Shown piece after piece: positions 3,255 through 60,061 of a stretch of 64,000 nucleotides of DNA. The notes below the pieces were generated by a model that searched no databases, had not been told where the DNA came from, and saw nothing but the letters and a program-made list of their open reading frames with translations. Each line of letters starts with the position of its first letter. Within the stretch, counting starts at the first letter, position 1. A program made the position numbers and the translations under genes. This DNA comes from Clostridia bacterium (GTDB lineage Bacteria > Bacillota > Clostridia > Oscillospirales > CAG-272): contig JAFTOG010000023.1 in NCBI GenBank assembly GCA_017451485.1, positions 55,313-119,312 of the forward strand, written 5' to 3'.

Positions 3255-3415
3255 GAACAATGTTGGGTTTTATGTAACCAAAGCTATTAATACGTTGTTT
3301 ATATTATTAAGATAGATTAGGATCAGTTGCTTTTGCAGAAATTATTACAATTCTATGATGATTTTCTTACATTTAAGTGTTAAAATTGGTATATACAAAG
3401 AATAGGAGAAAAAAT

Positions 3416-5710
3416 ATGGAAGTATTAAAGCTTGAAAAGGTATCTAAATTTTACACCTCGAAAACAAGCGTTGTAATGGGTCTTTCAAATGTAAATCTTT
3501 CATTCAGTGTGGGTGAATTTGTGGCTATTACAGGTGAAAGCGGAAGTGGAAAATCCACATTGGCTCATATACTTGGCGGCATTATACCTTATGAATCCGG
3601 TGAGCTGTATATAAATGGCTCTCCTACATCTCATTATGATGCATCAGATTGGGAAAGATATCGCCGTGACCTTATCAGCTTTATTTCTCAGAGCTATGGA
3701 GTTCTTGTTGGAAATACAGTTCTTGAAAATGTCGAGGCTGCATTACGCTTCGGTGGCTTAGATAAGGATGAAACAAGAAAACGAGCTCTTGAAATTTTGA
3801 AAGAGGTTGATCTTTTACATATAAAATCCCGTAAGGCAGGTAAGCTTTCCAGTGGACAAAAACAGCGTTTGTCAATTGCCCGTGCTCTTGCCAAGCCGTC
3901 AAGAATACTTATAGCAGACGAGCCTACAGGTAACCTTGATGCAGAAAACAGCGAAAAGATTATTGAGCTTTTGCACAAGGCATCAAAGGATAGACTTGTT
4001 ATCATCATTACTCATGAGTTTTCAGAGGTAGAGAATTATGCTACAAGGCGTATAATACTCTCCGATGCGTCTGTTGTAACCGATGCACCAATCAACCAGG
4101 GTGAAGAAAAGGAGAGCTCTGCAGATGCTACTGAGGTACGCAAGACCAAATCTGTAGGGGTTAAAAAAACGTCCAAGGATAAAAAATACTTGGCACCGTA
4201 TGTAACTAAGCTTACAGTAAAGTCCCGCCCTGTATTCTCGGCAATTATATGCGTATTTTTAGCGATTACCTCGCTTATAACCTTTGTTTTCCTCGGAACA
4301 TTTACTGTGTCGCTGGATGATTCCAATACGAAGATATATGACTCTTCAGCCTTCCTTAACGGAAATTCCTCACGACTTATCGTGTTGAAAAATGATGGCA
4401 CAGCGTTTACGGAAAGTGATTTTAACAATATGCTCGATGTAAGTTATGTAAAGGATGTAGAGGAATGGGGAAGTATTTATGATACTAACTATTACTACAG
4501 AGAAGATCTTGATTATAGAACGCAAAAGGTGATAGAAGAGGGAAAGAATAATAGTAACTACGGCTCCTCTGAGTTCTTTGTCGTAGATGTTGTAACCTTC
4601 CTTTATGAAGGACTTTATATGTCAACAGTGCCTAAGGTAGGCAAGGATATTATTGAGGATGGCAGAGCACCTGTGGGAATGTATGAGGTTCTTTCTGCAG
4701 ATCCTGAGCACAAGGTTGGCGATAAGGTAACTGTACATATCAGAAACAGAAACAACTGGGTACAGGGCTCGTACATCTCATTAAACTTAACTGTAGTGGG
4801 CAAAACCGATTACGGTCACGGACTTTATTTCTCTGATGAAATGGCAAACTTTATAGACACATCCTGCTTTTTCACCGATCCCGGTGATGTGCTTTTCATT
4901 CCCTACAAGGAGGGAGTATTCGAGATAGCTCAATCAAAGAGCGAAATTACCGAATTCAATGAAACAGATGTTTTCTTCCCGGGTAATGAGGCAGATAACC
5001 CCAGAGATATAGGCAATCAAAAATATTTTAATCAGTTTGAACAGGGTACTATCAGCCTTAAATATACTGCTATTTTCAAATGCGATAACAAAAAGGTTTA
5101 TGTAGTTCATGAGAATGTTTATGATGCTTATATGCCTCAAAAATATTCTAATCAAGCTACAGTGCATATTAAAGATTATTCGTATACTGACCGAGTAATC
5201 GCTGACTTAACAGAAAAGGGATATACAGTATTCTCACCCTTCAGAATAGGTGCGGTAACTGAGGATGAGGAGCTCTCCTCCGAGCGTACGGTAACCCTTG
5301 CGATTTGTCTTGCTGCATTTGCACTTACAACAGTTCTTCAGCTTATTCTTCTTAAGGCGATGTTTAATTCTATAAGCGTTCATTATAAGCTTATGTCAAA
5401 TATAGGACTTACCTCCCATGTTGCATATTGGTCAATCGGTCTTATGTTTCTCATATATACATTTATAAGTGAGATAATAGGCTTTGGTATAGTATTGATT
5501 TTAAATGCGATAGGATTGAAATATGTGGTAGATATATTCAAATATCTTGATGTGGGCACCATAATTATTCTTATACTTGTTCATTTCGCTATTTGTACTG
5601 TATCCTTCCTTTCTGTACGCAAGTCTGTTAGAAAACAGGTTTTCGCAACAGAAAAAGCTGATGAAGATTTAGATTTTACACAGATGGAGGAGGTAGAGGC
5701 TAATGATTAA
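3416..5710 (+). CDS. MacB-like fused ABC transporter: N-terminal ATPase, one TM, large extracytoplasmic domain, C-terminal FtsX-type 3-TM bundle (subunit 1)
   Basis: Walker A GESGSGKST, signature LSSGQKQRLSIARAL, Walker [13 protein letters not shown] (LolD/MacB-type DEPTGNLD), H-loop IIITHE. TM1 is PVFSAIICVFLAITSLITFVFLG, followed by about 330 aa of non-hydrophobic sequence and three C-terminal TM helices. AGGAGA lies upstream of the ATG at 3416. Confidence 0.85.
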   Translation: MEVLKLEKVSKFYTSKTSVVMGLSNVNLSFSVGEFVAITGESGSGKSTLAHILGGIIPYESGELYINGSPTSHYDASDWERYRRDLISFISQSYGVLVGNTVLENVEAALRFGGLDKDETRKRALEILKEVDLLHIKSRKAGKLSSGQKQRLSIARALAKPSRILIADEPTGNLDAENSEKIIELLHKASKDRLVIIITHEFSEVENYATRRIILSDASVVTDAPINQGEEKESSADATEVRKTKSVGVKKTSKDKKYLAPYVTKLTVKSRPVFSAIICVFLAITSLITFVFLGTFTVSLDDSNTKIYDSSAFLNGNSSRLIVLKNDGTAFTESDFNNMLDVSYVKDVEEWGSIYDTNYYYREDLDYRTQKVIEEGKNNSNYGSSEFFVVDVVTFLYEGLYMSTVPKVGKDIIEDGRAPVGMYEVLSADPEHKVGDKVTVHIRNRNNWVQGSYISLNLTVVGKTDYGHGLYFSDEMANFIDTSCFFTDPGDVLFIPYKEGVFEIAQSKSEITEFNETDVFFPGNEADNPRDIGNQKYFNQFEQGTISLKYTAIFKCDNKKVYVVHENVYDAYMPQKYSNQATVHIKDYSYTDRVIADLTEKGYTVFSPFRIGAVTEDEELSSERTVTLAICLAAFALTTVLQLILLKAMFNSISVHYKLMSNIGLTSHVAYWSIGLMFLIYTFISEIIGFGIVLILNAIGLKYVVDIFKYLDVGTIIILILVHFAICTVSFLSVRKSVRKQVFATEKADEDLDFTQMEEVEAND

Positions 5711-8180
5711 GGTTGATAATCTTAAGAAAACCTACGATAAGGGAACCAAAAGAGCCAATGAGGTTCTCCATAATCTTTCCTTTGAGCTTCCGGACACAGG
5801 ATTTGTGTGTATTCTCGGTTCATCGGGAAGCGGTAAGACCAGCTTGTTGAATGCAATAGGTGGTCTTGATGTGTATGACAGTGGCGTAATTACTACTGAA
5901 AATACCGAAATCAGAAAAGCTGTTTCAAAGGAAATGGAACGGGAGAGAAATGCTAATTTTGGTTACATATTCCAGAACTATTATCTTTTGGTAGAGCATT
6001 CCGTAGCATATAATGTATATCTCGGTATGCATTCCCTTGATATTCCTCATGCTGAAAAGCTTAAGAGAGTAAATGAAGCTTTGACTCGTGTTGATATGCT
6101 TCGCTACCGTAAACGCCCTGTAGGAGAGCTTTCCGGAGGACAACAGCAGAGAGTTGCTATTGCCCGTGCGATAGCTCGCAGACCACGTGTTATTTTTGCC
6201 GATGAGCCTACAGGTAACCTTGACGAAACAAATACAATGAAAATATGTACCATTCTTAAAGAGCTTTCCAAGGAGAGCCTTGTAGTAATGGTTACACACG
6301 AAACAAGAATTGCAGAATTCTTTGCCGATAGAATCATTACTCTCGAAAGAGGTAATATCGTATCCGACAGTACCGACTGGGAGAGAGGCGTTATTGATGC
6401 GGGAGAGAAGGACACAGTTTACTCAGGCGATTATACCGAAAATAATATAAACTCAGAAAATCTCTCTGTCAGAATGCTATCTACTGAGGATGCAGAGCCT
6501 GTTACATTTACTGTCATAGCAGAAAAGCATAGAATCATTGTTAAATTCAATGACAAGAGAGTAGTTCTGTCATCTGATACATCAAATGCTCCGTTCCTTA
6601 AAGAGGGAGAGCACCCCGTGCTTACTCATGACAGCTTCAAGCAGCCTGATAAAGAAGTGGCTAAGGTTGCCAAAAAGAAAAATGATGAGGGTGGTACAGG
6701 AAAAGCAAAGAAATTCCTTGGACTTAAGTTCCTTGTGAATGAAGCAAAGAGCTCTGTATCGGAAAAGAAGCTCCGTCGCTTCGGCTTAGGTGTGTTTATA
6801 ATCATACTTACACTTATGATTTCCATTGCGGTATCTGACTTTATTACTGTTTCAAATGTAGACCCCGAAGACTTTATTAGAGACGATTCTCACTCACTTT
6901 TTCTTAAGTTTGACAGAGGTCCCAACCTTGATATAAATCAAACAAAATATGATCCCATGATTAAGCAGTACTGTGACCATCTTGATGCTTCGGGATTGGA
7001 TTACGACATAATACCAAAATCAGCTACAGATTTATACTACAATGATACATCCTTTTCTCAGATTAATGATCTTTCTTTGACAATACCCAAGCACACACTT
7101 GTTAATATTTCAAGATTGGATGAGTCTACCATAATTGCAGGTAGAATGCCTGAAAATTATAATGAAATAGTAATTGACCGTTGGGTAATCGATATGGCCC
7201 TTGAGGAGGATGGAATCCTGCAGAATATGATTTCCAATCCCGAATATTTTGTTGGAAAAACCATAAATACCGAAAGACAGTATAGTCCTACAATTGTAGG
7301 TATTTGTGATTCCGGAGAGCCGTCTATATATATGAGCACAGAGGGTATTATCTCTATTTCAACCGGTGGAGATGAAATTATTACTCTGTCCGAGTTCAAA
7401 AGACTTACAGGCTTTGACCCTGAATATACTCTTGAATCCCATGAGTGTATTTCCCTTGACCCCAATGAGGGACACCATCTTGTAAGTGGAACAGTATACA
7501 AGCTGAGAAGCTTTTATCCCATTCTTGTAAAGGAAACCTTACAGGAAATACCGGGCGATTTTAACATTGAGGCTAAGTTTGTAGTTCCGGATGAAGCTTT
7601 AGACGATATTTATCTGGCTATGGTATGCTACGGAAAAGAAGCTACTCTTTGGGCTGAGGATAAGGATAGCATGAAGCTTTATCTTGATGGGGGAGTTCCG
7701 GAGGAAATTGAAGAGCTGATGACCGTTGTAATAACTGACAATTATCAGGGCTCTTACAATTATTATCTTGCTACCAAATCCGATAAGATAGGTGCAAGAA
7801 CAATAATAGTAATCTCAATTATAGTTCTTTCTCTTGTAATGATTTACTTGATGCAACGATCAAAGATAAAGGAGAGAATGGACCTTATTACAGTATACCG
7901 TCTCCTTGGAATATCAAAGCGAAATCTGATGGTTATATTTGCAATAGAAAGTCTGACAACTACTGCAAAGTTCTGTATACCGACCATTTTACTTCTGTTC
8001 TTTGGCATAAAGGTCGTTTCCAGCGTAGAGTCAATAGGTGAGATACTTATATTCCCATGGTGGGCAGCACTCCTTACCTTTGGAGCTATTGCACTGTTCA
8101 GACTGGCGTTCTCTATGATACCGATTCTTACTATTAACCGTAAGCCACCTGCTCAAATGGCAGCCAACTATGACTTCTAA
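5703..8180 (+). CDS. MacB-like fused ABC transporter ATPase-permease (subunit 2, paralog of the upstream gene)
   Basis: Walker [44 protein letters not shown] cytoplasmic linker of about 130 aa precedes TM1 [21 protein letters not shown] large extracytoplasmic region and a C-terminal FtsX-like helix bundle follow. The start overlaps the upstream stop by 8 nt (ATGATTAA) and GGAGGAGG lies upstream. Confidence 0.85.
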
Positions 8181-9817: not shown

Positions 9818-9840
9818 GTAATATGTGGTGGAGTAGACAT

Positions 9841-10395
9841 ATGGAAGAAATTTTGCAAGACATTATTAAGATCAAGGCAGGGGATAGCTGTGCCTTTGAG
9901 TCTCTTGTTAAAAGATTTGACCCTATGATTAGAAGTATGGCCCAAAAGTACTCCAATATGTGCAATATGTCATCACAAATGTTTGATGATTTTCTTCAGG
10001 AAGGTAAGGTAGCTTTTTATAATGCTGTTAATACCTTTCGTGAGGATAGCGGTATAACCTTTGGTGCTTACTCAAAGGTTTGTGTGCGTAACAGGCTTGT
10101 GTCCTGCGTACGGTCAGCAAACTCTAAAAAAAGACTAAGACGCTCTGATTCAAAAGATAACTACGACTTAGATAATCCACAGGATAACCTGATAGCGCGA
10201 GAACTTGAAAAGAAACTTTTTTCCCTTGCTCAGGATTGCCTTTCGCCGTATGAGAAAAAGATTTTCACCCACTATATGAATGGTGAAAGGGCAAAAGAGA
10301 TCTCTTTGAAGGTCAACAGGAGCGAAAGATCCGTTAATAATGCCATTTACAGAATTAAGGCAAAATTAAAACGGACAACCAACAGTGGTACTTAG
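9841..10395 (+). CDS. Sigma-70 family RNA polymerase sigma factor, SigH-like
   Basis: Region 2-like FLQEGKVAFYNAVNTFREDSGITFGAYSKVCVRNRL. Region 4 HTH LSPYEKKIFTHYMNGERAKEISLKVNRSERSVNNAIYRIKAKL, closely patterned on SigH (LS..E..V...Y..G.S..EIS..LNR..KS.DNA..R.K.KL). GGTGGAG lies 7 nt upstream of the ATG at 9841. Confidence 0.8.
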   Translation: MEEILQDIIKIKAGDSCAFESLVKRFDPMIRSMAQKYSNMCNMSSQMFDDFLQEGKVAFYNAVNTFREDSGITFGAYSKVCVRNRLVSCVRSANSKKRLRRSDSKDNYDLDNPQDNLIARELEKKLFSLAQDCLSPYEKKIFTHYMNGERAKEISLKVNRSERSVNNAIYRIKAKLKRTTNSGT

Positions 10396-10443: not shown

Positions 10444-10719
10444 ATGTTTCAGGACAAGACATTAAAGTGCAAAGATTGTGGTCAGGAATTTGTGTTCACA
10501 GCAGGTGAGCAGGAATTCTATCAGGAAAAGGGATTCCAGAACGAGCCCCAGAGATGCAAGGCTTGTAGAGATGCAAAAAAGAATGCAGCTAAGGCTCCCC
10601 GTGAGATGTTTACTACAACTTGTGCAAAGTGCGGCAAGGAAGCAAAGGTTCCTTTCCAGCCCAACAGCGACAGACCTGTATACTGCAGTGAGTGCTTCGC
10701 TGAAATGAAAAATCTCTAA
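10444..10719 (+). CDS. CxxC-x17-CxxC zinc-ribbon domain protein (TIGR04272-like)
   Basis: CKDCGQEF...CKACR is followed by CAKCGKEAKVPFQPNSDRPVYCSEC, with exactly 17 residues between the CxxC pairs. AAGGAGA RBS upstream. Confidence 0.8.
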   Translation: MFQDKTLKCKDCGQEFVFTAGEQEFYQEKGFQNEPQRCKACRDAKKNAAKAPREMFTTTCAKCGKEAKVPFQPNSDRPVYCSECFAEMKNL

Positions 10720-10804
10720 TATTTCGCTATACGGGAATATCTGAAGAAGATGCTTGCGTCTTTATTAACATATATTTTTGTTTCAAAAATTTAGGATTTG
10801 ATGA

Positions 10805-10845
10805 AAACGGACTTTTACAGTTAAAGGTCCGTTTTTATTTTTTTG
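10805..10845 (+). terminator. Rho-independent terminator after the zinc-ribbon gene
   Basis: Stem acggactttt / aaaggtccgt (about 10807-10832), followed by tttttattttttt. Confidence 0.8.
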
Positions 10846-10855
10846 AAAAAAGGTC

Positions 10856-10884
10856 TGTACAAAACAATATTATTATGATAAAAT
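10856..10884 (+). promoter_or_regulatory. Candidate sigma-A promoter for the rlmB operon
   Basis: Weak -35 TGTACA (10856-10861), a 17-nt spacer, then TGaTAAAAT (TAAAAT 10879-10884). Confidence 0.45.
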
Positions 10885-10911
10885 AAACATATATAATTAT
10901 ATTATGTCAGG

Positions 10912-11784
10912 GTGATGAAATTGAAAAACGATAAGAGATTTACTAAAGTCGATAATACGGGATTTCGAAAAAATAAGAATGACGCTAAAAACAGCTATTC
11001 CGGTTCCCGTTTTGACGACGATAAAGCAATGGATTCCGAAAATGAGCTTAGTGGAGTAGTAAGTGGAAGAAATGCAGTTTCAGAGCTGCTTAAATCGGAT
11101 AGGACAATAGATAAGATTTATGTGCGAAAGGGAAATCACGAGGGGTCAGTAACTGTTATAGTAGCAAAAGCTCTTGAGAAAAAAATTCCTGTTGTTGAGG
11201 TCGAGCAGAGGAAGCTTGATTTTATCAGTGGTGGGACAAACCATCAGGGTGTTGTAGCTATGGCAGCTATGAAGGACTATGTAGATGTTGACGAAATCCT
11301 CGCAATAGCAGAAGAAAGGGGAGAAAAGCCTCTTATAGTTATATGTGACTGTATTGAGGACCCTCATAATCTCGGTGCAATTATTAGATGTGCAGAGTGC
11401 TCAGGTGCTCACGGTATTATAATTCCTAAGCGTCATGCAGTGGGAATTACACCTGCTGTTTACAAATCCTCTGCAGGGGCTATAGAGCATATGGCTATTG
11501 CCAAGGTTTCAAATATAGCCACAACAATAGAGGAGCTTAAGAAAAAAGGATTGTGGATTTTTGCCTGTGAGGCAGGTGGAACTCCTTATTACGAAACTGA
11601 TTTTAATTGTCCGACTGCCATCATACTCGGCTCGGAGGGCAACGGAGTTGGTAAGCTGATAAAGGAGAGAAGTGATTATATCGTATCCATTCCTATGTAT
11701 GGAAAGGTAAACTCGCTTAATGTTTCAACTGCTGCGTCGGTAATTCTTTGCCACGCTGCAAGAATCCAAAGGGAGGGTAAATAA
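10912..11784 (+). CDS. rlmB: 23S rRNA (guanosine-2'-O)-methyltransferase RlmB (SpoU/TrmH family)
   Basis: SGRNAVSELLKS, HQGVVA, DPHNLGAIIRCAECSGAHGIIIP and VNSLNVSTAASVIL are the typical SpoU-methylase motifs, with an N-terminal substrate-binding domain. The start is GTG 10912 or ATG 10915. Confidence 0.85.
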   Translation: MMKLKNDKRFTKVDNTGFRKNKNDAKNSYSGSRFDDDKAMDSENELSGVVSGRNAVSELLKSDRTIDKIYVRKGNHEGSVTVIVAKALEKKIPVVEVEQRKLDFISGGTNHQGVVAMAAMKDYVDVDEILAIAEERGEKPLIVICDCIEDPHNLGAIIRCAECSGAHGIIIPKRHAVGITPAVYKSSAGAIEHMAIAKVSNIATTIEELKKKGLWIFACEAGGTPYYETDFNCPTAIILGSEGNGVGKLIKERSDYIVSIPMYGKVNSLNVSTAASVILCHAARIQREGK

Positions 11785-11785
11785 T

Positions 11786-13966
11786 ATGGAAGATAAATTC
11801 AGCCAGCTTGAGATGGATGTTGGTGATGTCGAGAGAGTGGAAACTGAGCTTTTCGGCACCGAAAAAGAAAGAAAGCCATATCGCAGATACCCATCTAATA
11901 TGAAAATAGACGAATCTCAGATAATTGAAGATCCCGAGGAGGATTCTGAGATTGAGCTTGTTTCCCCGAATGAAGAGGTATTTAAGAAGGTATCCGGCTC
12001 AATAAGAAGAAGTGGAGAGGATAGAGAAATCCCTGATTCTGCATGGAACCGTAAGGATGAAAGTGGGGATTATAATCCCAAATTCGATGATACCTATGCC
12101 AACACCACGGAAACAGAGCATAGCTTTATGAAGACCTTTGGTATGCTCGAAACCCGTAAGAGTGTAAGCATGGAGGAAACAAATCAGACTACAAAGGAGA
12201 TAGAGGCACTCCAGGGTGATATACATTCTGATTACTACGAGTATACCGACAGACAGCAGAGAAAAGAAATAATCGGCATGTACAAGTATGCAAAAAGGTC
12301 TATAAAAATTAAAATGATAATTGCTTCTGTTTTTGCCGTTATGCTTTTGTTTTTGGAAAACATAAGCTTCTTTTCAAGAAGTCTTTATGACAGCATGGAA
12401 ATTGGAGAGCATCCATACATATTCTTTTTTGTAGATTTAGGTATTCTTCTTGCCTGCATGGGATGTGCATACGAACAGTTGTATTACGGAGGAAGATCAA
12501 TACTTGCTAAGGAGCATATTCCCGAGAGCATTTCAGTTTATGCGTGCTTAATCAGTATTGCATATTCCTTGATAACACTTATATTTGTTCCCTTTGGCTT
12601 TCAGCAGAAGCTATATAATTTCCCGGTAGCCTTAGTTTGCGTTTTATCTCTTGTGTATTCATACACAAATGTTATAAGGGAAAAATACGGCTTCAGTGTA
12701 GTATCCTCAAAGGATGCAAAGTTTGTTGTTAATAAGCTATCCTCTGATGATGCGGAAACAGAGTATGAAACCTTTACAACTACCGGTGATGATATATCCG
12801 GTAACATTAATATAGTAAAAATAGATAAGGCAAATTTCGTAAAGGGATATTTTGCAAGGACAAATCAGCCTGCCGATGTAAAAAACGCTATGGATGTTTA
12901 CTCACTTGCATCGCTTATTGCTCCTTTAGTGCTTTTTGTTATAGCTATTATTCGTGGATACATATTTACGGATGCTCTTGCAGTATGGTATGAGGGCTTT
13001 TTATTAGCTCTTCCTGTGGGCTTCTTGTTTACATATAGTATACCGTTCCTTATGGGAAATAAAAAGCTTTTTAATGACGAGGTAGCTATTATAGGCGAGA
13101 ATGCAATTAAAGAGTTTTCTGATATCAGAGTAGTTTCTGTAAATGATACAACAGCTTTTCCCCCATACAATGTAAAATTGCAGAATTTTAAGGTATATAG
13201 TGATTTCAATATTGAAAAGGTGCTTTACTATGCTGCAAGTGGATTCAGCGTCGTTGGAGGACCTTTAGCTGATGTGTTTGATTTAGCTACAAGAGATGCA
13301 ATGCAGAAGAGTAAACGTACAAAGTTTATCTGTGGTGCAAGAAGCTATTTTTGTGTAAAGGTGGATAATGATACTCTTATATTTGCTGACAGATACGGAA
13401 TGGCATCTCAGGGAATAGATGTTCCTGTAGAGAAGGATGATGCAGATGAAAGCCTGAGCATTATGTTTATGGCGTGCAACGGTACACTTTGTGCAAAAAT
13501 GTATATCAATTATATGATAGATATTGACTTTGCGGAAACAGTACGCACACTTAATAAAAACGGCACAGCAGTTATGATAAGGACCTTTGATCCCAATATT
13601 AATAATGAAATTATTAAAAAGCAGACAATATTCAAAAAGTCCGAGCTTTGCGTTATAAAGCTTAACGGCAGTGACCAGATATCAAAAACAGTAGATAAAA
13701 TAGACAGTGGAATAGTATCAAAGGGACGGTCCAGATCCTTACTTAAGGCTATTCCCGTATGCAAGAATATAACAAAAACAAGAAAGGCCTCTTTGATAGT
13801 CAAGGTAATAAGCTCCCTTACCGGACTTGTACTTCTTGGACTTACCGTGTTTGAACTTTTTGGCTTGACACCGTTTGTACCACCGATATTTGTGGGACTG
13901 TTTTATGTACCGTGGATGCTACTTATGTTGGCAATCAGTGGAATAAACCTTTCGAGGATAAGGTAA
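11786..13966 (+). CDS. Polytopic membrane protein resembling a heavy-metal (P1B) P-type ATPase but lacking the catalytic motifs; acidic N-terminal extension
   Basis: LALPVGFLFTYSIPFLMGNKKLFNDEVAIIGENAIKEFSDIRVVSVNDTTAF aligns by eye to the CPC...GILIKG..ALE...V.FDKTGTLT block, with CPC->LPV and DKTGT->NDTTA. MIRTFDPN sits in place of MLTGDN. No GDGxND is seen. Multiple TM helices. The ATG is 1 nt after the rlmB stop. Confidence 0.55.
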   Translation: MEDKFSQLEMDVGDVERVETELFGTEKERKPYRRYPSNMKIDESQIIEDPEEDSEIELVSPNEEVFKKVSGSIRRSGEDREIPDSAWNRKDESGDYNPKFDDTYANTTETEHSFMKTFGMLETRKSVSMEETNQTTKEIEALQGDIHSDYYEYTDRQQRKEIIGMYKYAKRSIKIKMIIASVFAVMLLFLENISFFSRSLYDSMEIGEHPYIFFFVDLGILLACMGCAYEQLYYGGRSILAKEHIPESISVYACLISIAYSLITLIFVPFGFQQKLYNFPVALVCVLSLVYSYTNVIREKYGFSVVSSKDAKFVVNKLSSDDAETEYETFTTTGDDISGNINIVKIDKANFVKGYFARTNQPADVKNAMDVYSLASLIAPLVLFVIAIIRGYIFTDALAVWYEGFLLALPVGFLFTYSIPFLMGNKKLFNDEVAIIGENAIKEFSDIRVVSVNDTTAFPPYNVKLQNFKVYSDFNIEKVLYYAASGFSVVGGPLADVFDLATRDAMQKSKRTKFICGARSYFCVKVDNDTLIFADRYGMASQGIDVPVEKDDADESLSIMFMACNGTLCAKMYINYMIDIDFAETVRTLNKNGTAVMIRTFDPNINNEIIKKQTIFKKSELCVIKLNGSDQISKTVDKIDSGIVSKGRSRSLLKAIPVCKNITKTRKASLIVKVISSLTGLVLLGLTVFELFGLTPFVPPIFVGLFYVPWMLLMLAISGINLSRIR

Positions 13967-15814
13967 ATGAATAATTTAAGCACAATATTAAAATCCGTAT
14001 CTAAGCCCGGCAGATATACAGGTGGAGAGTACGGACAGATTATTAAGGATAAAGAGAAGGTGAGCCTTCGTGTTGCCTTCTGCTTTCCCGATACATACGA
14101 AATAGGTATGTCAAATCTGGGAGTACGCATTCTATACGGTGCCATAAACCAAATGGATGGTGTATGGTGTGAGAGAGTATATGCTCCCTGGCCCGATATG
14201 GAGGATAAAATGAGGGAGTATAATATTCCTCTGTTTGCTCTTGAAAGCAAGGACTCCATAAAGGACTTTGACATAATTGCTACATCATTGCAATATGAAT
14301 TATGCTATACCACAGCTGTAAATATGATTGACCTTGCCGGACTTCCCATATTTGCAAGGGACAGAGGAGAGGATGCTCCCGTGCTTTTAGCCGGTGGTCC
14401 ATGTGCATATAATGCCGAGCCGGTTGCTGATTTCTACGATATTTTCAGCATTGGAGAGGGAGAGGAAGCATTACCCGAGCTTTGTGCTCTTATGAAAAAA
14501 ATGAAGGAGGACGGTACCTACACAAAGACTGCATTCCTTCGTGAGGCGTCTCATCATAAGGGATTTTATGTTCCTTCACTGTACAGTATAGAGTATAATG
14601 AGGATGGTACGATTAAGTCCTTTGAGCCAAAATATGAGGATGTCCCCAAAAAAGTAGAAAAGAGAATAGTAGCAGACTTAAATACCTCTTATTTTCCTAC
14701 AAAGCCTGTGATGCCATTTATAGAAACGGTCCATGACAGAATAATGTTAGAGACCTTTCGTGGATGTATAAGGGGATGTCGATTCTGTCAGGCAGGTATG
14801 GTATTCCGTCCTGTGCGTGAAAAGAGTGCAGAGGTGTTAAATGCTCAGGCAAAGGAAATTTTCAAAAATTCAGGATACAATGAAATATCTTTGACATCAC
14901 TTTCCATAAGCGATTATTCCTGTTTGTCAGATGCTACGGATTTACTTCTTGAATGGACAAACCCTGCTAAGATTAATTTGTCCTTGCCATCCCTTCGTGC
15001 CGACAGCTTTACTAAGGAGCTTATGGAAAAAATTAGCACTGTAAGACAGTCCGGACTTACATTTGCCCCTGAGGCAGGAACACAGAGGCTCCGTGATGCT
15101 ATAAATAAGAATTTATATGAGAGTGATCTTCTCAATGCTGTCAGGTTGGCATTTGAAGGCGGTAAAAGCCTCGTAAAGCTTTATTTTATGAATGGTCTTC
15201 CTACGGAGACCTACGAGGATATAGAAGGAATATCAGTGCTTGCTAAGCATGTGGTTGATGAGTTCTATAAGATGCCCGTAAGACCGAAGAAGCCTGTCAG
15301 TGTAACGGTCAGTGTTTCCTGCTTTGTACCCAAGCCTCACACTCCATTTCAGTGGGAGCCACAGAATACTCTTGATGAGCTTTGCGAAAAGCAGAAATTC
15401 CTCGGTGAAAAAATAACTGATCGAAGAGTTAGATATAATTGGCATGAGGCTAAGGTTTCACGCCTTGAGGCAGTATTTTCTAAGGGTAATCGCCGTCTTT
15501 CCAAGGCTATTGCATATGCTGTAGAGCAGGGAATGAGATTTGATGCATGGGACGAATATTTTGACTACGATAAGTGGATGGATGTATTCGACAAGTGTGG
15601 CATAGATCCGTCATTCTATGCAAATCGCAGAATGGACTATGATGAAATACTACCGTGGGATGTTATTGATATAGGAGTAAGCAAAAAATTCCTGATATCC
15701 GAGAGCAAAAAAGCGTATGAAAGCGTAACAACCCCCAACTGCAAGGAGAAATGCTCGGGCTGTGGAGCAAATAAATTGGGAGGAGATGTAACATGGTGTC
15801 CCAAAATGAGATAA
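13967..15814 (+). CDS. Radical SAM protein, TIGR03960-type (uncharacterised family with N-terminal B12-binding-like domain)
   Basis: CxxxCxxC cluster motif FRGCIRGCRFCQAG. The length and N-terminal region (VAFCFPDTYEIGMSNLGVRILY) are typical of the family. The ATG directly abuts the upstream TAA (13964-13966). Confidence 0.85.
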   Translation: MNNLSTILKSVSKPGRYTGGEYGQIIKDKEKVSLRVAFCFPDTYEIGMSNLGVRILYGAINQMDGVWCERVYAPWPDMEDKMREYNIPLFALESKDSIKDFDIIATSLQYELCYTTAVNMIDLAGLPIFARDRGEDAPVLLAGGPCAYNAEPVADFYDIFSIGEGEEALPELCALMKKMKEDGTYTKTAFLREASHHKGFYVPSLYSIEYNEDGTIKSFEPKYEDVPKKVEKRIVADLNTSYFPTKPVMPFIETVHDRIMLETFRGCIRGCRFCQAGMVFRPVREKSAEVLNAQAKEIFKNSGYNEISLTSLSISDYSCLSDATDLLLEWTNPAKINLSLPSLRADSFTKELMEKISTVRQSGLTFAPEAGTQRLRDAINKNLYESDLLNAVRLAFEGGKSLVKLYFMNGLPTETYEDIEGISVLAKHVVDEFYKMPVRPKKPVSVTVSVSCFVPKPHTPFQWEPQNTLDELCEKQKFLGEKITDRRVRYNWHEAKVSRLEAVFSKGNRRLSKAIAYAVEQGMRFDAWDEYFDYDKWMDVFDKCGIDPSFYANRRMDYDEILPWDVIDIGVSKKFLISESKKAYESVTTPNCKEKCSGCGANKLGGDVTWCPKMR

Positions 15815-16479
15815 TCCCTATAAGAATAAAATTCAAAAAGTATGGCTCTCTTATGTACATTTCTCACCTTGATACTGCAAAAACCATGCAGAGAATAATG
15901 CTTCGTGCAGGTATTGATATCTGGTATAGTGAGGGCTTTAATCCTCAGCCCAAAATTGTATTTGCAGTACCTCTTCCCGTAGGTGTGGAGAGTGAATGTG
16001 AATTTATGGATATAAAGATAAATTCATATATGAGCTGTGAAGAAATTAAGGAACGCTTATCCTACAATATCCCTAATGAAATGAAGATAATTTCCGTATA
16101 TATTCCCGAGCAAAAGCTAAAAAACATAATCTATATAGATTATGAAATGGAAATCTGCTCCCATTCCGTTGACAATGAAACTGCATCCCAAATAGAAAAT
16201 CTTTTATCCGGCGATGTATTTGTCGTAAAAAGATCTAAGGGAACAGAGAAGGAAATCAATATCAAGGATTATATTAAATCCGTGTCCGTAAGGAATGAAA
16301 ACGGCAAAATAATAATTAAAGCAATTATATGTGCCGGAGGAGATAAAAACCTTAATCCCGAGCTTTTAATTGAAGCAATCAGAGCCAATACAAAGCTTTT
16401 GAACGGTAATCCCACAGAGGAATATTACTCAATTATGAGAAAGCGTATGCTTTGTGAGGACCTTACTGAATTTAAGTAA
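15793..16479 (+). CDS. Radical SAM-linked protein, TIGR03936 / DUF2344 family
   Basis: IRIKFKKYGSLMYISHLDTAKTMQRIMLRAGI and SEGFNPQPKIVFAVPLPVG are hallmark DUF2344 blocks. The gene overlaps the radical SAM gene by 22 nt. Confidence 0.8.
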   Translation: MVSQNEIIPIRIKFKKYGSLMYISHLDTAKTMQRIMLRAGIDIWYSEGFNPQPKIVFAVPLPVGVESECEFMDIKINSYMSCEEIKERLSYNIPNEMKIISVYIPEQKLKNIIYIDYEMEICSHSVDNETASQIENLLSGDVFVVKRSKGTEKEINIKDYIKSVSVRNENGKIIIKAIICAGGDKNLNPELLIEAIRANTKLLNGNPTEEYYSIMRKRMLCEDLTEFK

Positions 16480-16490
16480 TTTCATACATA

Positions 16491-16520
16491 AGAGAGAGCA
16501 GACCTTTCTGCTCTCTTTTA
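16491..16520 (+). terminator. Rho-independent terminator after the radical SAM operon
   Basis: Stem agagagcag (16493-16501) / ctgctctct (16508-16516), then a short T-run (ttt). Confidence 0.65.
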
Positions 16521-16532
16521 TGTATATAAGCA

Positions 16533-16561
16533 TTGACATAGTAGTAATAAAACATTATAAT
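16533..16561 (+). promoter_or_regulatory. Perfect-consensus sigma-A promoter for the CotH-family gene
   Basis: TTGACA (16533-16538), a 17-nt spacer, TATAAT (16556-16561). Confidence 0.8.
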
Positions 16562-16596: not shown

Positions 16597-18654
16597 ATGA
16601 ATTCGAGGATAAAAATCAGGTATTTTAGAATTATCAGTATTATAATTGCTTTGCTATTTTGTCTGTGTGCTGTAGGATGCAGCAGTACAGAGGATAACAC
16701 TACTGAGAATACTACTACCGGGGATAACACTACAAGCACCTCGGAGGAAGTCACAACTTTGACTGAGGAGAATAATGATCCAAATAATGGTAATATCGGT
16801 GATAATGAAGAGGGGAGCAATAATGAAGCAGAGCTTCCTGATTATTATACAGCCGTTATTAAATCAAACAGTTATATTATATCATCCCCATATACCGGAG
16901 AAATCTCTGTATCGGATGAGCTTAAGGGAGTTTACTATACAGCTGATTCTCCCGGTGGTGAGCCACAAAATGACGGTACAGGAAAAATATGGTTAAAGCT
17001 TAAGCCTATTGAAAAATATTGTATTTCTTCTCTTAATATAGACGGTGATTATTCTTCAGTTGAAGATTTAGGTAATGATGTATACTGTATTAACGGTGTA
17101 AAATCAAATCTATCTGTTAGCATAACTGTAAAAACAGTATATAACTCTAATGAACAAATATTTGCAAATTATGGCTATGGAATTTCCGATAATGGAGTAA
17201 TGATTGTAAGCTGGAAGGAAAGTGCAGAAGCTCCATTACGGTATGTGGAGCTTAGCTATACGGACAGTAATGGTTATCAAACCAAATATATAGATGCTTC
17301 ACTTGGCAGAGCAGAGCTCTTTGAAATGACTGAAAATCAAATTTATACAGTTTCCATGAGGGCTATAAGCCGTAATTATATAGGAAAAAGTGTGAATGTC
17401 AGTGGCTGTTATATGAAGTCTCCTAAGGAGGTCTCTTTCCCAAGGGTGGAAATTACCACTGATAATTATATATTGCCGAGCTTTGACACGATTAATTCTC
17501 CTTCAAATGCTTGGGGAGCAGGCATTACCAACGCTACATATGAGCAATGCATAATGACCTTGTACAATGAAGACAACGAAATCGTATACAGCTCATCTGT
17601 TGGAAGTGGAGAGGGTGAGGAATATCTTGGTGCTAAATTAAAGGTAAGAGGTAATACCAGTGCTGCCCATGCCAAGGATTCAAGATATCCGTATAAGGTC
17701 AAGCTGAGTGAAAAATTTGATTTATTAGCTCCGTTAATCGGCAGAGAGGATGACGGAAAGTCTTACGCTGATAAGGATTGGCTTCTCCTTAATTACGGTG
17801 ATGAATTTTACCGTATTTGTGGAGATGCAATTGCAGACGCAGTGGGGACAGAATGGTCCCCCGATTATTGTTATGTCAGCTTGTATGTTAATGGAGATTA
17901 CCGTGGGCTCTATGTTTTGTCCGAGGCTGTTGAAAGAGGCAACGGAGCAGATGAAGAGCAATGGAGAGTTGCAGTAGATAATGACGGCTATGTTTTTGAG
18001 TGTGATGCTTATTGGTGGAATGAGAATTTATATTTTGATACTCCCTTGACAAAGAACACCAAGATGTATTATACCTTCAAATATCCCGATTCTGATTATA
18101 TCAAGGAGGGGTCCTTAGAATATAACTATTTGAAAAATTACATAATTGATTTTGAGAATGCCATTAAGAAAAATGACGACTCATATCTTGAATATATGGA
18201 CCTGGATTCCTTTGTAAAATGGCTTCTTGTGTCGGATTACTTATGTATTAGCGACGGTGGAGGATGTAATATTTTTCTCTATAAAGAGGATTCCACGGAT
18301 AATACAAAAATTAACATGGGACCTAACTGGGATTTTGATTCATATATGGGTGATGTCAACGGTCTTTCAACCATTCGTATGTCTTGGAGTACAGCCCCAT
18401 TCTATTACCATAGACTTATTAAAAAATCTTCATTCCAGACACGGTATAATGAGCTATTTATGGAAACACATGAAAAGCTGGACAAATATATAGATGATGC
18501 ATATTCCAAAATCGATATAGAATCCCATACTGAGCTTCTGGAATATCAAAATATCCGTTTCAGAACAGAAAAGAAATCCTTGTCAACACAGAAGGAAGCC
18601 TTTGATATATGGTTGGATGGACATCTTGATTATATGGAGACACAATTTAACTGA
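16597..18654 (+). CDS. CotH kinase family protein, predicted lipoprotein
   Basis: Lipobox LCAVGC followed by a Thr/Asn/Glu-rich linker. CotH-type blocks KLKVRGNTSAAHAKDSRYPYKVKL, YVSLYVNGDYRGLYVLSE and GPNWDFDSYMG. ACGGAGGA RBS. Confidence 0.8.
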   Translation: MNSRIKIRYFRIISIIIALLFCLCAVGCSSTEDNTTENTTTGDNTTSTSEEVTTLTEENNDPNNGNIGDNEEGSNNEAELPDYYTAVIKSNSYIISSPYTGEISVSDELKGVYYTADSPGGEPQNDGTGKIWLKLKPIEKYCISSLNIDGDYSSVEDLGNDVYCINGVKSNLSVSITVKTVYNSNEQIFANYGYGISDNGVMIVSWKESAEAPLRYVELSYTDSNGYQTKYIDASLGRAELFEMTENQIYTVSMRAISRNYIGKSVNVSGCYMKSPKEVSFPRVEITTDNYILPSFDTINSPSNAWGAGITNATYEQCIMTLYNEDNEIVYSSSVGSGEGEEYLGAKLKVRGNTSAAHAKDSRYPYKVKLSEKFDLLAPLIGREDDGKSYADKDWLLLNYGDEFYRICGDAIADAVGTEWSPDYCYVSLYVNGDYRGLYVLSEAVERGNGADEEQWRVAVDNDGYVFECDAYWWNENLYFDTPLTKNTKMYYTFKYPDSDYIKEGSLEYNYLKNYIIDFENAIKKNDDSYLEYMDLDSFVKWLLVSDYLCISDGGGCNIFLYKEDSTDNTKINMGPNWDFDSYMGDVNGLSTIRMSWSTAPFYYHRLIKKSSFQTRYNELFMETHEKLDKYIDDAYSKIDIESHTELLEYQNIRFRTEKKSLSTQKEAFDIWLDGHLDYMETQFN

Positions 18655-22955: not shown

Positions 22956-23179
22956 AATTTACCTCCATGCTCAAAGATAATTTTAATTATTTTACCATAT
23001 AATCTTAACATTGGCAAGATATTATGACAAAAAAACTTACATATACGACATATTGCTTTAACAGGAAATATATGATAAAATATTTTTTGAATTATTATAT
23101 AATCATCCAACCTTTTTGTTATTTTCCGGTACTAAGTATTGAAACCGAAAGCGCTTACGGAATCAAAGGGAGTGAAATA

Positions 23180-24958
23180 ATGTATAGATTTAACGGCAAA
23201 GAAGAAGAGCTTAAGCAATTGATAAACAAATATAAATCAATTGTATACGGAACTGCATACGCATATCTGCGATATAATTTTGAAATAGATGATGTAGTAC
23301 AGGAAACCTTTATTCAGCTTTACTTTAATTATGGAAAAATTATTGATAAAGAAAAAATTGGCTCGTGGCTTTGTGGAGTAGCCAGGAATATTTCTATGAA
23401 AAAACTTCGTCAAACAAAGTATTATACACCTCTTGAGGATAATGAGTATATTGCCGTAAGAGGAGTAGACGAGGAGCTTTGCGATAAAGAAAGAAATACT
23501 GAGCTTTATAATGCTATAAGTAATTTATCAAAGCCGATAGCAGAAACGGTAACGCTATTCTACCTTGCAGAAAAATCTATAAGTGATATTTCATCTCTGC
23601 TTTCCGTTCCTGAGGGGACAATAAAAAGCCGTCTTTACGAGGGTAGAAAAAAACTGAAGGGAGATTTGATTTATATGATGGAAAAGAAGAATAATTCTAT
23701 AAGCAAGGTGGATATTTACAATAACATTAAGGAATATATATCCAATGCAAAAAAAGCGATAGATATAAGAAACAGCCCTGTAGCTATATTACATCTTGAC
23801 AAAGCTATTGGTGAGTTCGAGGCGTTAGAGAAAGAATATAAGCTTCTTGCGGAAATATACCGTTTAAGAGCACTTGCTACAACAGATAAAGAAAAAGCAA
23901 TAATTGACGGTGAAAAGAGTGTAGCATACGCACGGCTGACTAATAACAGAAGACTTATAGCAGAGTATTTATTTTCTCATTGCTTTGATTACTATGATGA
24001 AAAGCAACTTTGTATGTTGATTGAGGTTTATGAAATGGCACAATCTATGAATTATTTTGCATTATGCTCGGAAAGTGCCTTTTGGATATCTACTCATAAA
24101 ATGAAGTCCTATAAATATTCAAATGCAAGAGAATGGCTTAATATAGCAATAAATGCCTATAATAGAATTGAAAGCTTCGATGGCGTAAACTGCTGTGTCG
24201 GTGACACTGTAAGAACCCGTGCATTGTCCTCAGCGGCACTTGATTCGATGAGTATGCTTGAAAAAATAGGACATCTGAACGGAGAATATTCAATTCTAAA
24301 TACATTCTGTATGATACTAAAAAATGAAAAGGACGGTGTATCGTCTCAGGCTAATTATGGCTGGGATATCCCCGGAAAGCAGAAAAGAGTTAAAAATGCC
24401 CATAGATTCTTCGGATGCTTTGAGTGTGAGCAGGTTATTTATTCAAATAGCTTACTGGAGAATGGATATCTTGACCACGAATACTATCTTTGGAACGGCG
24501 TTCTTGTGAATAGAAGATATGATATATTATCAAAAAATGAAACGGTTTTAACCGAGGCGGGCGAATTCAAGGATTGCATTCATATTAAGATTACAGAAAG
24601 TATACCTAATTACGATGGAAGTATAATAGATTACAAAGAGGCCTTTGAATGTCTTGAATGCTTAGAGCATTGGTACTGTCCGGATGTAGGACTGATAAAA
24701 TCGAAAAGAGCATTTCCAAATGATAGCAATATTTTACCATATTCAAGAGAGCTTAAATGCTATTGTGTTGCTCCGACCTTTGAAAGAGGATGCAGATATT
24801 TTCCCATATCCGTAGGAAATATGTGGGAATATAATGTTTTTGATGAAAACGGGGTAGACTATTCTGAAAGGTATGGATATAGAGATTGCTATAAGATAGA
24901 TACAGTAACTGAAGAATATACCTATATTTCAAACAGCGGATTTACTTATGTAAAATAA
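23180..24958 (+). CDS. ECF-type sigma-70 family sigma factor fused to a ~400 aa soluble C-terminal domain of unknown function
   Basis: Region 2 DDVVQETFIQLYFNYGKI...WLCGVARNISMKKLRQ. Region 4 LSKPIAETVTLFYLAEKSISDISSLLSVPEGTIKSRLYEGRKKLK. A helical repeat-like stretch and a Cys/Trp/Tyr-rich beta-like region follow, with no hydrophobic TM segment. AAAGGGAG RBS before the ATG at 23180; the longer listed ORF start is AT-rich leader. Confidence 0.75.
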   Translation: MYRFNGKEEELKQLINKYKSIVYGTAYAYLRYNFEIDDVVQETFIQLYFNYGKIIDKEKIGSWLCGVARNISMKKLRQTKYYTPLEDNEYIAVRGVDEELCDKERNTELYNAISNLSKPIAETVTLFYLAEKSISDISSLLSVPEGTIKSRLYEGRKKLKGDLIYMMEKKNNSISKVDIYNNIKEYISNAKKAIDIRNSPVAILHLDKAIGEFEALEKEYKLLAEIYRLRALATTDKEKAIIDGEKSVAYARLTNNRRLIAEYLFSHCFDYYDEKQLCMLIEVYEMAQSMNYFALCSESAFWISTHKMKSYKYSNAREWLNIAINAYNRIESFDGVNCCVGDTVRTRALSSAALDSMSMLEKIGHLNGEYSILNTFCMILKNEKDGVSSQANYGWDIPGKQKRVKNAHRFFGCFECEQVIYSNSLLENGYLDHEYYLWNGVLVNRRYDILSKNETVLTEAGEFKDCIHIKITESIPNYDGSIIDYKEAFECLECLEHWYCPDVGLIKSKRAFPNDSNILPYSRELKCYCVAPTFERGCRYFPISVGNMWEYNVFDENGVDYSERYGYRDCYKIDTVTEEYTYISNSGFTYVK

Positions 24959-26938: not shown

Positions 26939-27078
26939 TATATTATCCTTTCTATGCGTAGCACGACAAAAGACCGTCTTATGACGGTAGTGCATAGAGC
27001 CCGTAAGTGTATAAACGGCCCCACCTACGGTGCTCTATACAGATATTGAGAAGAAATTGTATCAAACGAATATATGAT
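26939..27078 (-). promoter_or_regulatory. Structured 5' leader of rnj (nested hairpins, possible attenuator)
   Basis: On the - strand there are four elements. (1) GTATCA..TGATAC hairpin. (2) A long hairpin ATAGAGC-A-CCGTAGGTG...CACTTACGG-GCTCTAT. (3) ACCGTC-ATAA-GACGGT followed by CTTTTGT. (4) An outer CTATGC...GCATAG pairing. No known riboswitch class was recognised. Confidence 0.4.
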
Positions 27079-32213: not shown

Positions 32214-32228
32214 ATTACAGGTAAAGGT

Positions 32229-32298
32229 TTTTGTGACTGACGGAAGCGGATAACCGCGTGGAAGCAAAAATCACTTGTATGTCGACCGTCTGGGCAGC
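32229..32298 (+). promoter_or_regulatory. ZTP riboswitch (pfl motif) aptamer
   Basis: TGACTGACGGAA (32234-32245), then a GCGG..CCGC hairpin, GGAAG, a linker, then CGACCGTCTGGGCA (32283-32296). This matches the conserved cores of ZTP riboswitches as recalled from the Fusobacterium example (..UGACUGACGGAA..GAAG..CGACCGUCUGGGC). Confidence 0.85.
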
Positions 32299-32328
32299 TC
32301 TACCTTTATGGGGTGGACTGTCCTTTTT
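32292..32328 (+). terminator. Riboswitch expression-platform terminator (overlaps the 3' pseudoknot strand of the ZTP aptamer)
   Basis: GGGCAG-c-TCTACC (32292-32304) pairs with GGTGGA-CTGTCC (32312-32323), followed by TTTTT (32324-32328). Confidence 0.75.
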
Positions 32329-49825: not shown

Positions 49826-49910
49826 TGGTGCAGGAAATGAGATTTGAACTCACAAGAATTTCTTCATTGGCTTCTGAGACCAACGCGTATGCCAATTCCG
49901 CCACTCCTGC
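49826..49910 (-). tRNA. tRNA-Leu (anticodon CAG), class II with long variable arm, CCA encoded
   Basis: The reverse complement reads GCAGGAGTGGCGGAATTGGCATACGCGTTGGTCTCAGAAGCCAATGAAGAAATTCTTGTGAGTTCAAATCTCATTTCCTGCACCA. The acceptor stem is GCAGGAG/TTCCTGC. The anticodon stem is TTGGT/GCCAA with loop CTCAGAA (CAG). The T-loop is GTTCAAATC. Confidence 0.9.
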
Positions 49911-59944: not shown

Positions 59945-59966
59945 GTGTCCGTTAAAAAAATTCAGA

Positions 59967-60049: not shown

Positions 60050-60061
60050 GTTTAGTTATTC

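Follow-up and report, generated by a model that had tools for sequence, protein, structure and literature searches.

Two conserved gene pairs, rlmB with a degenerate P1B-ATPase-fold gene and an orphan TIGR03960/TIGR03936 radical SAM pair, in a candidate four-gene operon of a Clostridia bacterium

This analysis concerns a four-gene cluster in a 64,000-nt stretch of DNA from an uncultured gut Clostridia bacterium (assembly GCA_017451485.1, contig JAFTOG010000023.1, positions 55,313 to 119,312 of the forward strand). We refer to the whole stretch as the window, and gene boundaries were drawn from its list of open reading frames (ORFs) together with a reading of the sequence. The four genes follow each other on the plus strand: rlmB, a membrane protein gene that we call ORF2, a TIGR03960 radical S-adenosylmethionine (SAM) gene and a TIGR03936/DUF2344 gene. 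The features of the locus are as follows.

10800..10839, plus strand: intrinsic terminator of the upstream zf_Tbcl gene, forming the 5' operon boundary (18-pair stem followed by TTTTTTTGAAAA)
10856..10884, plus strand: candidate operon promoter, TGTACA-17-TAAAAT with an extended -10 TG (9/12 consensus matches, weak)
10912..11784, plus strand: rlmB, predicted 23S rRNA (guanosine-2251 2'-O)-methyltransferase, 290 amino acids (aa) (TIGR00186, SpoU_sub_bind, SpoU_methylase)
11786..13966, plus strand: ORF2, putative degenerate P1B-type-ATPase-fold membrane protein, 726 aa (family profile, AlphaFold2 model, Foldseek, hhalign)
13967..15814, plus strand: TIGR03960 radical SAM protein, 615 aa (TIGR03960, PF19864, PF04055)
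15793..16479, plus strand: TIGR03936/DUF2344 partner, 228 aa (TIGR03936, AlphaFold2 model, Foldseek)
16485..16524, no strand assigned: strong palindromic hairpin closing the operon (folding free energy, dG, -26.6 kcal/mol, z = -8.6)

An earlier note on this DNA, made from the sequence alone, had described four tightly coupled genes bracketed by a terminator and promoter upstream and a terminator downstream. The ORF list and the junction sequences bear out the coupling: rlmB ends one nucleotide before ORF2 (TAA-T-ATG), ORF2 abuts the radical SAM gene with a gap of 0 nt (TAAATG), the radical SAM and DUF2344 genes overlap by 22 nt, and purine-rich Shine-Dalgarno sequences (GGGAGGG, GAGGA and GGAGGAG) stand ahead of the ORF2, radical SAM and DUF2344 starts. 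The bracketing holds for the hairpins on both sides. The upstream one, with its T-run, folds at a dG of -20.3 kcal/mol (z = -6.1, 0/200 shuffles folding equally well), and the palindrome at the 3' end looks like a bidirectional terminator whose U-tract is mostly absorbed into the stem. The upstream promoter fared less well. Position 10856, where that note began the cluster, is a promoter-like site and no gene start, and the operon promoter is no more than a candidate, because promoter-like matches are equally frequent in shuffled sequence (40 across the region against 36.9 expected, no enrichment). Within the cluster we found only weak 9/12 promoter-like matches and poor hairpins lacking T-tails, at the frequency seen in shuffles, and the window sequence gives no evidence of sub-operons. 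An Rfam scan returned no cobalamin riboswitch, other riboswitch or RNA gene in or near the operon.

Comparison with other genomes divides the cluster into two conserved pairs, rlmB with ORF2 and TIGR03960 with TIGR03936, which are joined in many, not all, members of one Clostridia group. The genes rlmB and ORF2 are nearly always together, and TIGR03960 and TIGR03936 are an obligate pair, usually fused. Our search with ORF2 comprised five look-ups and 80 metagenome loci, with identity down to 24%. RlmB is encoded directly upstream of the ORF2 homologue in 50 of 55 resolved metagenome loci while both outer flanks vary, and the radical SAM gene lies directly downstream of ORF2 in 28/60. The full order rlmB-ORF2-radical SAM-DUF2344 recurs in these 28 metagenome loci and in about 20 species-level genome loci. 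Gaps between rlmB and ORF2 range from 1 to 82 nt, and those between ORF2 and the radical SAM gene from -4 to 224 nt, with an inserted GNAT gene widening the distance to 783 nt in one lineage. The varying flanks hold sigma/zf_Tbcl, ROK, NlpC/P60, sulfatase or P-type ATPase genes upstream and CotH, DUF421, RecR or other genes downstream. Two ORF2 sequence clusters lack the radical SAM gene, one having elongation factor G (EF-G) and AlgX-like genes downstream and the other unrelated genes on the opposite strand.

Seen from the radical SAM gene, the neighbourhood is broader. Here the search gave 80 species-level genome loci, all from Clostridia and at 50-79% identity, with the gene called in 74; ORFs were called and clustered by us and the cluster representatives annotated with Pfam. 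An ORF2 homologue preceded by RlmB lies upstream in 12/74 Clostridia loci, and ORF2 is absent from the other 62. RNase E/G directly follows the radical SAM pair in 12/74, usually with L21-Prp-L27-Obg after it, L19-LepB-RbgA-RNase HII-YraN lies within a few genes in about 15/74, and, counted beyond the loci with RNase E/G directly downstream, either L21-Prp-L27-Obg or L19-LepB-RbgA-RNase HII is nearby in roughly 25. We also took a distant set of five representatives, three of them fusions and one from Blastocatellia (Acidobacteriota). All five lack ORF2, and RNase E/G lies downstream in 3/5: the three fused loci, the Blastocatellia one included, read (mreBCD)-PBP2-RodA-[radical SAM-DUF2344]-RNase E/G, with the fusion gene overlapping RNase E/G by 11 nt in one of them (L091). 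Placement next to rlmB is thus not unique to this genome, a possibility the earlier note had raised against itself, because the arrangement recurs in other genomes and metagenomes; beside the radical SAM pair, RNase E/G is more widespread than RlmB.

Some side observations belong to these neighbourhoods. A small M50 peptidase gene, travelling with an M23 peptidase gene, lies directly upstream of the radical SAM gene in 22/74 Clostridia loci; we considered it as a functional partner and rejected it, synteny being the simpler explanation. This placement matches the position of spoIVFA/spoIVFB upstream of rplU in Bacillus. The EF-G gene that follows rlmB-ORF2 in one subclade (L147:7168-9249; NF009381, 833 bits), itself followed by a gene for an AlgX-like SGNH protein, has counterparts in about ten similar loci (L138, L140, L146, L150-153, L162, L166, L168), and EF-G is another translation-related neighbour of the degenerate ATPase. 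The inserted GNAT acetyltransferase gene (L003:11036-11527), between the degenerate ATPase and radical SAM genes, belongs to one lineage (L003/L004). In the window the operon is directly followed by a gene for a 685-aa CotH-kinase-domain protein (16597-18654, plus strand), with a perfect sigma-70 consensus promoter (TTGACA-17-TATAAT, 16533-16561). The position downstream of the operon is a synteny breakpoint, since the gene found there differs in every related locus examined.

RlmB itself is ordinary. It passes the TIGR00186 equivalog model (214.4 bits, cut-off 160.15), both PF08032 (SpoU_sub_bind) and PF00588 (SpoU_methylase) are found by Pfam, and the family match predicts 2'-O-methylation of G2251 in 23S rRNA. 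The protein has a basic N-terminal extension of ~48 aa, and its start is ambiguous among GTG 10912, ATG 10915 and TTG 10921. Upstream on the plus strand lie a sigma factor gene (9823-10395), whose best match is sporulation SigH at 75.7 bits against a cut-off of 294.8, and a gene for a 91-aa double treble-clef zinc-finger protein (10444-10719; zf_Tbcl + zf_Tbcl_2, CxxC-x17-CxxC). The zf_Tbcl gene is kept between the SigH-like gene and rlmB in many related loci, and in one locus (L033) it stands directly upstream of the radical SAM gene. The SigH-like gene is conserved upstream of zf_Tbcl-rlmB, along with DUF4364, SpoIIP and GPR protease genes.

The constant neighbour of rlmB is a far less ordinary protein. 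The N-terminus of ORF2 (residues 1-150) is disordered and acidic. The chain has about eight transmembrane helices, its A-domain loop is shortened, and the motifs of its P- and N-domains are non-canonical. No Pfam model matches it, E1-E2_ATPase and Hydrolase included, precomputed Pfam annotation holds no domain in 120 homologues, and NCBIfam gives only a sub-threshold match to the P1B-ATPase model TIGR01525 (E = 4e-4). About 156 homologues are detectable, all from uncultured Clostridia metagenome-assembled genomes, and every named one is called hypothetical. A profile of 38 homologues matches Legionella CopA (LpCopA, 3rfu) at E = 0.0019. When the AlphaFold2 model (predicted local distance difference test, pLDDT, 78.6) is compared with the PDB by Foldseek, only P-type ATPases are returned, and P1B copper/zinc pumps rank first (4bbj, E = 2e-16; 7r0g, 1e-14; 7si6, 1.5e-14). 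The second gene product had been called ATPase-like before, and as a statement about fold this was right.

It does not extend to a working ATPase, as the motifs of the P-type catalytic cycle are absent. The alignment with 3rfu places LPV on CPC, vsvnDTTaFP on DKTGT, GGPLA on SEHPL and RTFD on LTGD, and the register is no different (E = 2.9e-5) when hhalign is run against a genuine P-type ATPase encoded near an ORF2 homologue (L020:2241-4148; 168 bits for Pfam E1-E2_ATPase and 103 bits for Hydrolase). Among 94 family members, DKTGT and GDGxND occur in none and TGE[SP] in one, and the family has motifs of its own: D[KT]x[VA][FY]P in 89, [TS]xDPN in 94 and GGPL in 89. In the window protein the phosphorylation loop is N453-D454-T-T-A-F. 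Across the family, N, V, Y, D, A or E can stand where the catalytic Asp aligns, and the Asp after it (D454) never changes. At the P1B HP motif, HHP aligns to GGP, so that His is replaced by Gly and the ATP-stacking His is gone, the CPC metal site is LPV or xxP, and the loop between helices 4 and 5, which corresponds to the A domain, has only ~60 residues. Because the ATP-stacking His, the Mg2+-binding Asp pair, TGES and CPC are all absent and the A loop is so short, we consider with good confidence that ORF2 is a non-pumping P1B-ATPase derivative that keeps part of the phosphorylation pocket. The family appears undescribed, being without a Pfam or NCBIfam model and without a trace in our literature search, which also found no described bacterial pseudo-P-type ATPase. 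Genuine P-type ATPases are encoded one or two genes from an ORF2 homologue in at least four loci (L020:2241-4148, L099:7490-10267, L122 and L123, as genes flanking rlmB), recognised by Pfam E1-E2_ATPase and Hydrolase in L020 and L099 and by phmmer matches only in L122 and L123. Their nearness may mean that ORF2 arose when a pump gene next door was duplicated, or it may be chance.

The second pair begins with a clear member of TIGR03960 (920.8 bits, cut-off 462.3, residues 6-607 covered), which carries an N-terminal, B12-binding-like Radical_SAM_N2 domain (PF19864, E = 2e-59). Its SAM-cluster motif CX3CX2C at C267/C271/C274 is invariant, and a second CX3CX2C at the C-terminal end (C592/C596/C599) is nearly invariant over 50 diverse family members and probably binds an auxiliary iron-sulfur (Fe-S) cluster. 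This second motif, with C612 also near, sits just ahead of the point where DUF2344 is fused in other members. Among solved structures, a profile search ranks 9ccb, a radical SAM protein without a name, nearest to the core, followed by RimO (E = 2e-7) and MiaB (E = 1.5e-3). The methylthiotransferase models score low and align with the core only (TIGR00089, 18.1 bits against a cut-off of 251; TIGR01579, 22.2 against 357), and the protein does not qualify as a MiaB/RimO member by the usual marks of UPF0004 with three Cys, TRAM and a score above cut-off. It is ~83% identical in genomes whose ORF2 is down to 45-50% identity and, to judge from these sequences, is under very strong constraint. A HMMER scan at E <= 1e-30 found 3318 representatives (50%-identity clusters); its named members include Sarcina and Acidobacteriota (Blastocatellia and others). 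Of the 150 best-scoring ones, most are ~850-aa fusions with DUF2344, and the split form of the window is the minority.

The DUF2344 protein passes TIGR03936 (176.1 bits, cut-off 71.9), and its relatives are fused to the radical SAM protein in most representatives and lineages. A sequence search of the PDB gave no match even at E = 10, so only the comparison of folds was informative. Its AlphaFold2 model (pLDDT 91.4) has TruA, Pus1, Pus3 and Pus10 as top Foldseek matches (template-modelling score, TM, ~0.6, E ~1e-7), and the TM scores of 0.59-0.62 against 1dj0, 8q70, 4j37 and 9enc place it in the pseudouridine-synthase (PUS) fold. The model also matches catalytically dead PUS-like rRNA assembly factors from mitoribosome assembly intermediates (6sga_FC and 9hny_FC). 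Pfam likewise groups DUF2344 with pseudouridine synthase domain families (PMC7955657). In the consensus of 50 diverse members no Asp reaches 50% anywhere in the DUF2344 part, where the conserved loop is SxGFxP (SEGFNPQP in the window's clade); since no Asp attains majority conservation, DUF2344 is not a pseudouridine synthase. A literature search on TIGR03960, TIGR03936, DUF2344, PF19864 and 'radical SAM-linked protein' found no paper assigning a function, in keeping with the earlier note's remark that the pair has no assigned substrate, and TIGR03960/TIGR03936 is a recognised 'conserved hypothetical' pair. We also asked about a programmed -1 frameshift that would fuse the two proteins here, and rejected it: on inspection, no heptamer of the X XXY YYZ type is visible in the radical SAM frame of the overlap (…TGG TGT CCC AAA ATG AGA TAA), and over 70 loci preserve the split form, in which DUF2344 has its own Shine-Dalgarno sequence and ATG.

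The reading that we favour, as somewhat likelier right than wrong, is that the operon consists of two conserved gene pairs joined in one transcription unit, the second of which modifies RNA. ORF2 would be a membrane protein with a P1B heavy-metal ATPase as its ancestor. It would have kept the fold and a few pocket residues (the invariant Asp, which lies on the phosphorylation site or beside it, and [TS]xDPN where TGDN would stand) and would have lost the motifs for ATP binding, Mg2+ coordination, dephosphorylation and metal binding. It would most likely be a non-pumping membrane scaffold or regulator, with an rRNA methyltransferase as its constant genetic partner, and our working guess is that it acts through its long acidic tail and the remnant P-domain pocket. 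The second pair would be the split form of a usually single-chain RNA-modifying enzyme. In it DUF2344, with its pseudouridine-synthase fold and no catalytic Asp, would bind RNA and present a flipped-out nucleotide, and radical chemistry on the presented nucleotide would fall to the radical SAM domain, equipped with a SAM cluster, an auxiliary Cys cluster at the C-terminus and a B12-binding-like N-domain, a layout that parallels the UPF0004-radical SAM-TRAM order of MiaB/RimO. RNA-directed radical modification by TIGR03960/TIGR03936 is in our judgement the best reading. The idea was put forward in the earlier note from the presence of rlmB, and it is strengthened by evidence independent of rlmB: the DUF2344 model folds like TruA/Pus1, the core resembles MiaB/RimO, and there are three different RNA/ribosome contexts, with RNase E/G or ribosomal neighbours in both Clostridia and Acidobacteriota.

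Several points weigh against this reading. A pseudouridine-synthase fold does not prove RNA binding, and our literature search found no experiment or publication giving the radical SAM pair a substrate. As many as 33 of the 74 Clostridia loci have no recurrent RNA or ribosome neighbour from -6 to +8 genes around the radical SAM gene, 2/5 distant loci lack RNase E/G, and housekeeping regions of the type mreBCD-rodA ... rng-rplU-obg need not be syntenic for functional reasons. The case for co-transcription of the four genes as a single unit is made wholly from their spacing. What the analysis shows is the order and coupling of the genes, the folds, the lost motifs and the conserved neighbourhoods; co-transcription, an RNA substrate, the chemistry and a physical link between the pairs are inferred from these. 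In the HMMER and hhalign alignments of ORF2 it is N453 that falls on the catalytic Asp, with a register uncertain by one residue, and in the model a strand spans 449-453 and a helix begins at D454, so that D454 may be the true equivalent of the catalytic Asp and may allow residual phosphorylation.

These points feed three rival explanations. If the adjacency to RNA-related genes is meaningless, the radical SAM pair could act on a ribosomal protein, RNase E/G, the envelope or a lipid, or a small molecule, which we regard as unlikely while giving it more weight than the other two. The pair sits at the junction of a cell-shape cluster (mreBCD, PBP2, rodA, M23/M50 peptidases) and the rng/rplU cluster, 33 of the 74 Clostridia loci lack an RNA or ribosome neighbour, RimO, the nearest solved relative after 9ccb, modifies a protein, and lipid-modifying B12-binding radical SAM enzymes are known (PMC11214058). 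Nevertheless DUF2344 has a TruA/Pus fold, and Foldseek ranks enzymes that modify RNA, or dead homologues bound to rRNA, at the top; three different RNA/ribosome contexts recur in different lineages, and in L091 the fusion gene overlaps RNase E/G by 11 nt. That ORF2 is no pseudoenzyme at all, and works as a very divergent P-type transporter phosphorylated at D454, seems to us quite improbable. The conservation of D454, of [TS]xDPN and of the M4 proline P410 would suit it, as would D-K at the phosphorylation loop of many members, conserved polar residues in the membrane helices (E191, Q231, N278), and the end of the model strand at 453, which may put D454 where a P-type nucleophile belongs. Against this stand the motif census, with DKTGT and GDGxND missing throughout and TGE[SP] in a single protein, the replacement of the HP histidine by Gly in the 89 members with GGPL, the LPV or xxP at CPC, the short A-domain loop, and the failure of the two Pfam models that score so highly in the genuine pump of L020.

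The earlier note had gone further and proposed one integrated, membrane-tethered machine, in which ORF2 would anchor RlmB and the radical SAM/DUF2344 proteins for joint modification of 23S rRNA or the nascent ribosome. The 0-1 nt gaps on either side of ORF2 in the window would fit such a machine, as would the persistence of the four-gene order in most ORF2 clusters, down to ~25% identity, and the presence of EF-G, a ribosome-related protein, downstream in another ORF2 subclade. The tether is nonetheless contradicted by the loci themselves, because many radical SAM loci, including most of those in Clostridia and all the distant ones, have no ORF2 and many ORF2 loci, about half, have no downstream radical SAM gene. 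ORF2 keeps company with rlmB and only in part with the radical SAM gene, a GNAT gene or more than 200 nt separates the two in L003 and L014, and the radical SAM pair of L033 (sigma-zf_Tbcl-radical SAM-DUF2344) has neither rlmB nor ORF2. The protein contacts that it proposes between the pairs are drawn from gene adjacency. We consider this integrated machine very unlikely. A further proposal, to which we give an equally small chance, is that ORF2 is a new kind of factor for ribosome biogenesis or translation, anchored in the membrane. It would be a former metal pump taken on to localise RlmB or to regulate it, and in most subclades it would serve TIGR03960/TIGR03936 or an EF-G paralogue as well; modification of large-subunit rRNA would then be coupled to the membrane, for example in sporulation, or to a ligand that the remaining phosphorylation pocket senses.

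Returning to two joined pairs, of which the second would modify RNA, the reading matters for both halves of the operon. TIGR03960/TIGR03936 are among the most widespread and most conserved radical SAM families without a function, with >3300 representatives (50%-identity clusters) spread over Bacillota, Acidobacteriota and other groups. It is a testable hypothesis that a module of pseudouridine-synthase fold presents RNA to a radical SAM core with two clusters, in an enzyme with genetic ties to RNase E/G and large-subunit ribosome biogenesis, and cultivable Clostridium species that carry the radical SAM-DUF2344-rng-rplU arrangement are tractable organisms in which to test it. ORF2 appears to define an undescribed P-type-ATPase-derived family without pump motifs, whose gene comes straight after rlmB in almost all resolved loci, and a link between a pump-derived protein and an rRNA methyltransferase would be unexpected.

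The rest of the window holds other features. Upstream on the plus strand lie tandem overlapping genes for giant ABC proteins of 777 and 825 aa (3377-5710 and 5703-8180), each with an N-terminal ABC_tran domain, the second also with a C-terminal FtsX permease domain (a MacB-like fusion). Downstream, a 644-aa protein (23024-24958, plus strand) has an extracytoplasmic-function (ECF)-type sigma-70 module (regions 2 + 4, ~60-215) followed by ~430 residues matching no family, and may be a sigma/anti-sigma-like fusion. An RNase J gene (25004-26995, minus strand) lies 8.5 kb downstream of the operon; RNase E/G, L21, L27, Obg, L19, RbgA and RNase HII were searched for in the 64-kb window and none was found. 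Rfam places a ZTP riboswitch (32223-32302, plus strand) at the head of an extended series of genes on the plus strand, a SAM (S-box) riboswitch (59965-60051, plus strand) ahead of the gene at 60112-61281, and a single tRNA gene at 49829-49910 on the minus strand.

The products of the operon can be set beside known proteins. ORF2 shares with the P1B heavy-metal ATPases (CopA, ZntA, ATP7B) the whole-chain fold, with ~8 transmembrane helices and A-, P- and N-domains, and its signature positions align colinearly with theirs; it differs in having a disordered acidic tail instead of a metal-binding N-domain, in its substituted motifs (CPC to LPV, DKTGT to (N)DTTAF, SEHPL to GGPL, TGDN to TFDPN, with GDGxND and TGES absent), in being encoded after rlmB and in belonging to no Pfam or NCBIfam family. 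The window's rlmB resembles RlmB (YacO) of Bacillota in passing the RlmB model and in lying near a SigH-like sigma factor gene, an arrangement that recalls the yacO-yacP-sigH region of Bacillus subtilis. In the window, however, the gene after rlmB encodes a degenerate ATPase rather than yacP/rae1, and the sigma factor falls well short of the cut-off for SigH.

For the radical SAM protein the comparison is with two groups. Like the class B (cobalamin-dependent) enzymes, TIGR03960 is named 'B12-binding' by NCBIfam, a cobalamin binding that is predicted only, and it has weak matches to MJ0865- and MJ1487-type B12 enzymes, with a faint PF02310 in homologues; unlike them, it has no cobalamin riboswitch or B12 genes near the window operon, and its core is closer to RimO/MiaB than to solved class B enzymes. 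The methylthiotransferases MiaB, RimO and MtaB, the nearest named solved relatives of the core, share its three-part layout of a Rossmann-like N-domain, a radical SAM core and a C-terminal substrate-recognition module, and its two Fe-S sites, the second of which is predicted in TIGR03960. Their own substrates lie in the translation apparatus, which would be a further likeness if the TIGR03960 pair acts on RNA. TIGR03960 differs from them in having Radical_SAM_N2 rather than UPF0004 as its N-domain, in the C-terminal position of its extra Cys cluster, in a partner module of pseudouridine-synthase fold rather than TRAM, and in scoring far under the family cut-offs. That partner module superposes on TruA, Pus1 and Pus3 (TM ~0.6, E 1e-7 to 1e-6), at a sequence identity of ~10% and, unlike them, with no majority-conserved Asp, and in fold it also resembles the dead PUS-like rRNA assembly factors of 6sga and 9hny.

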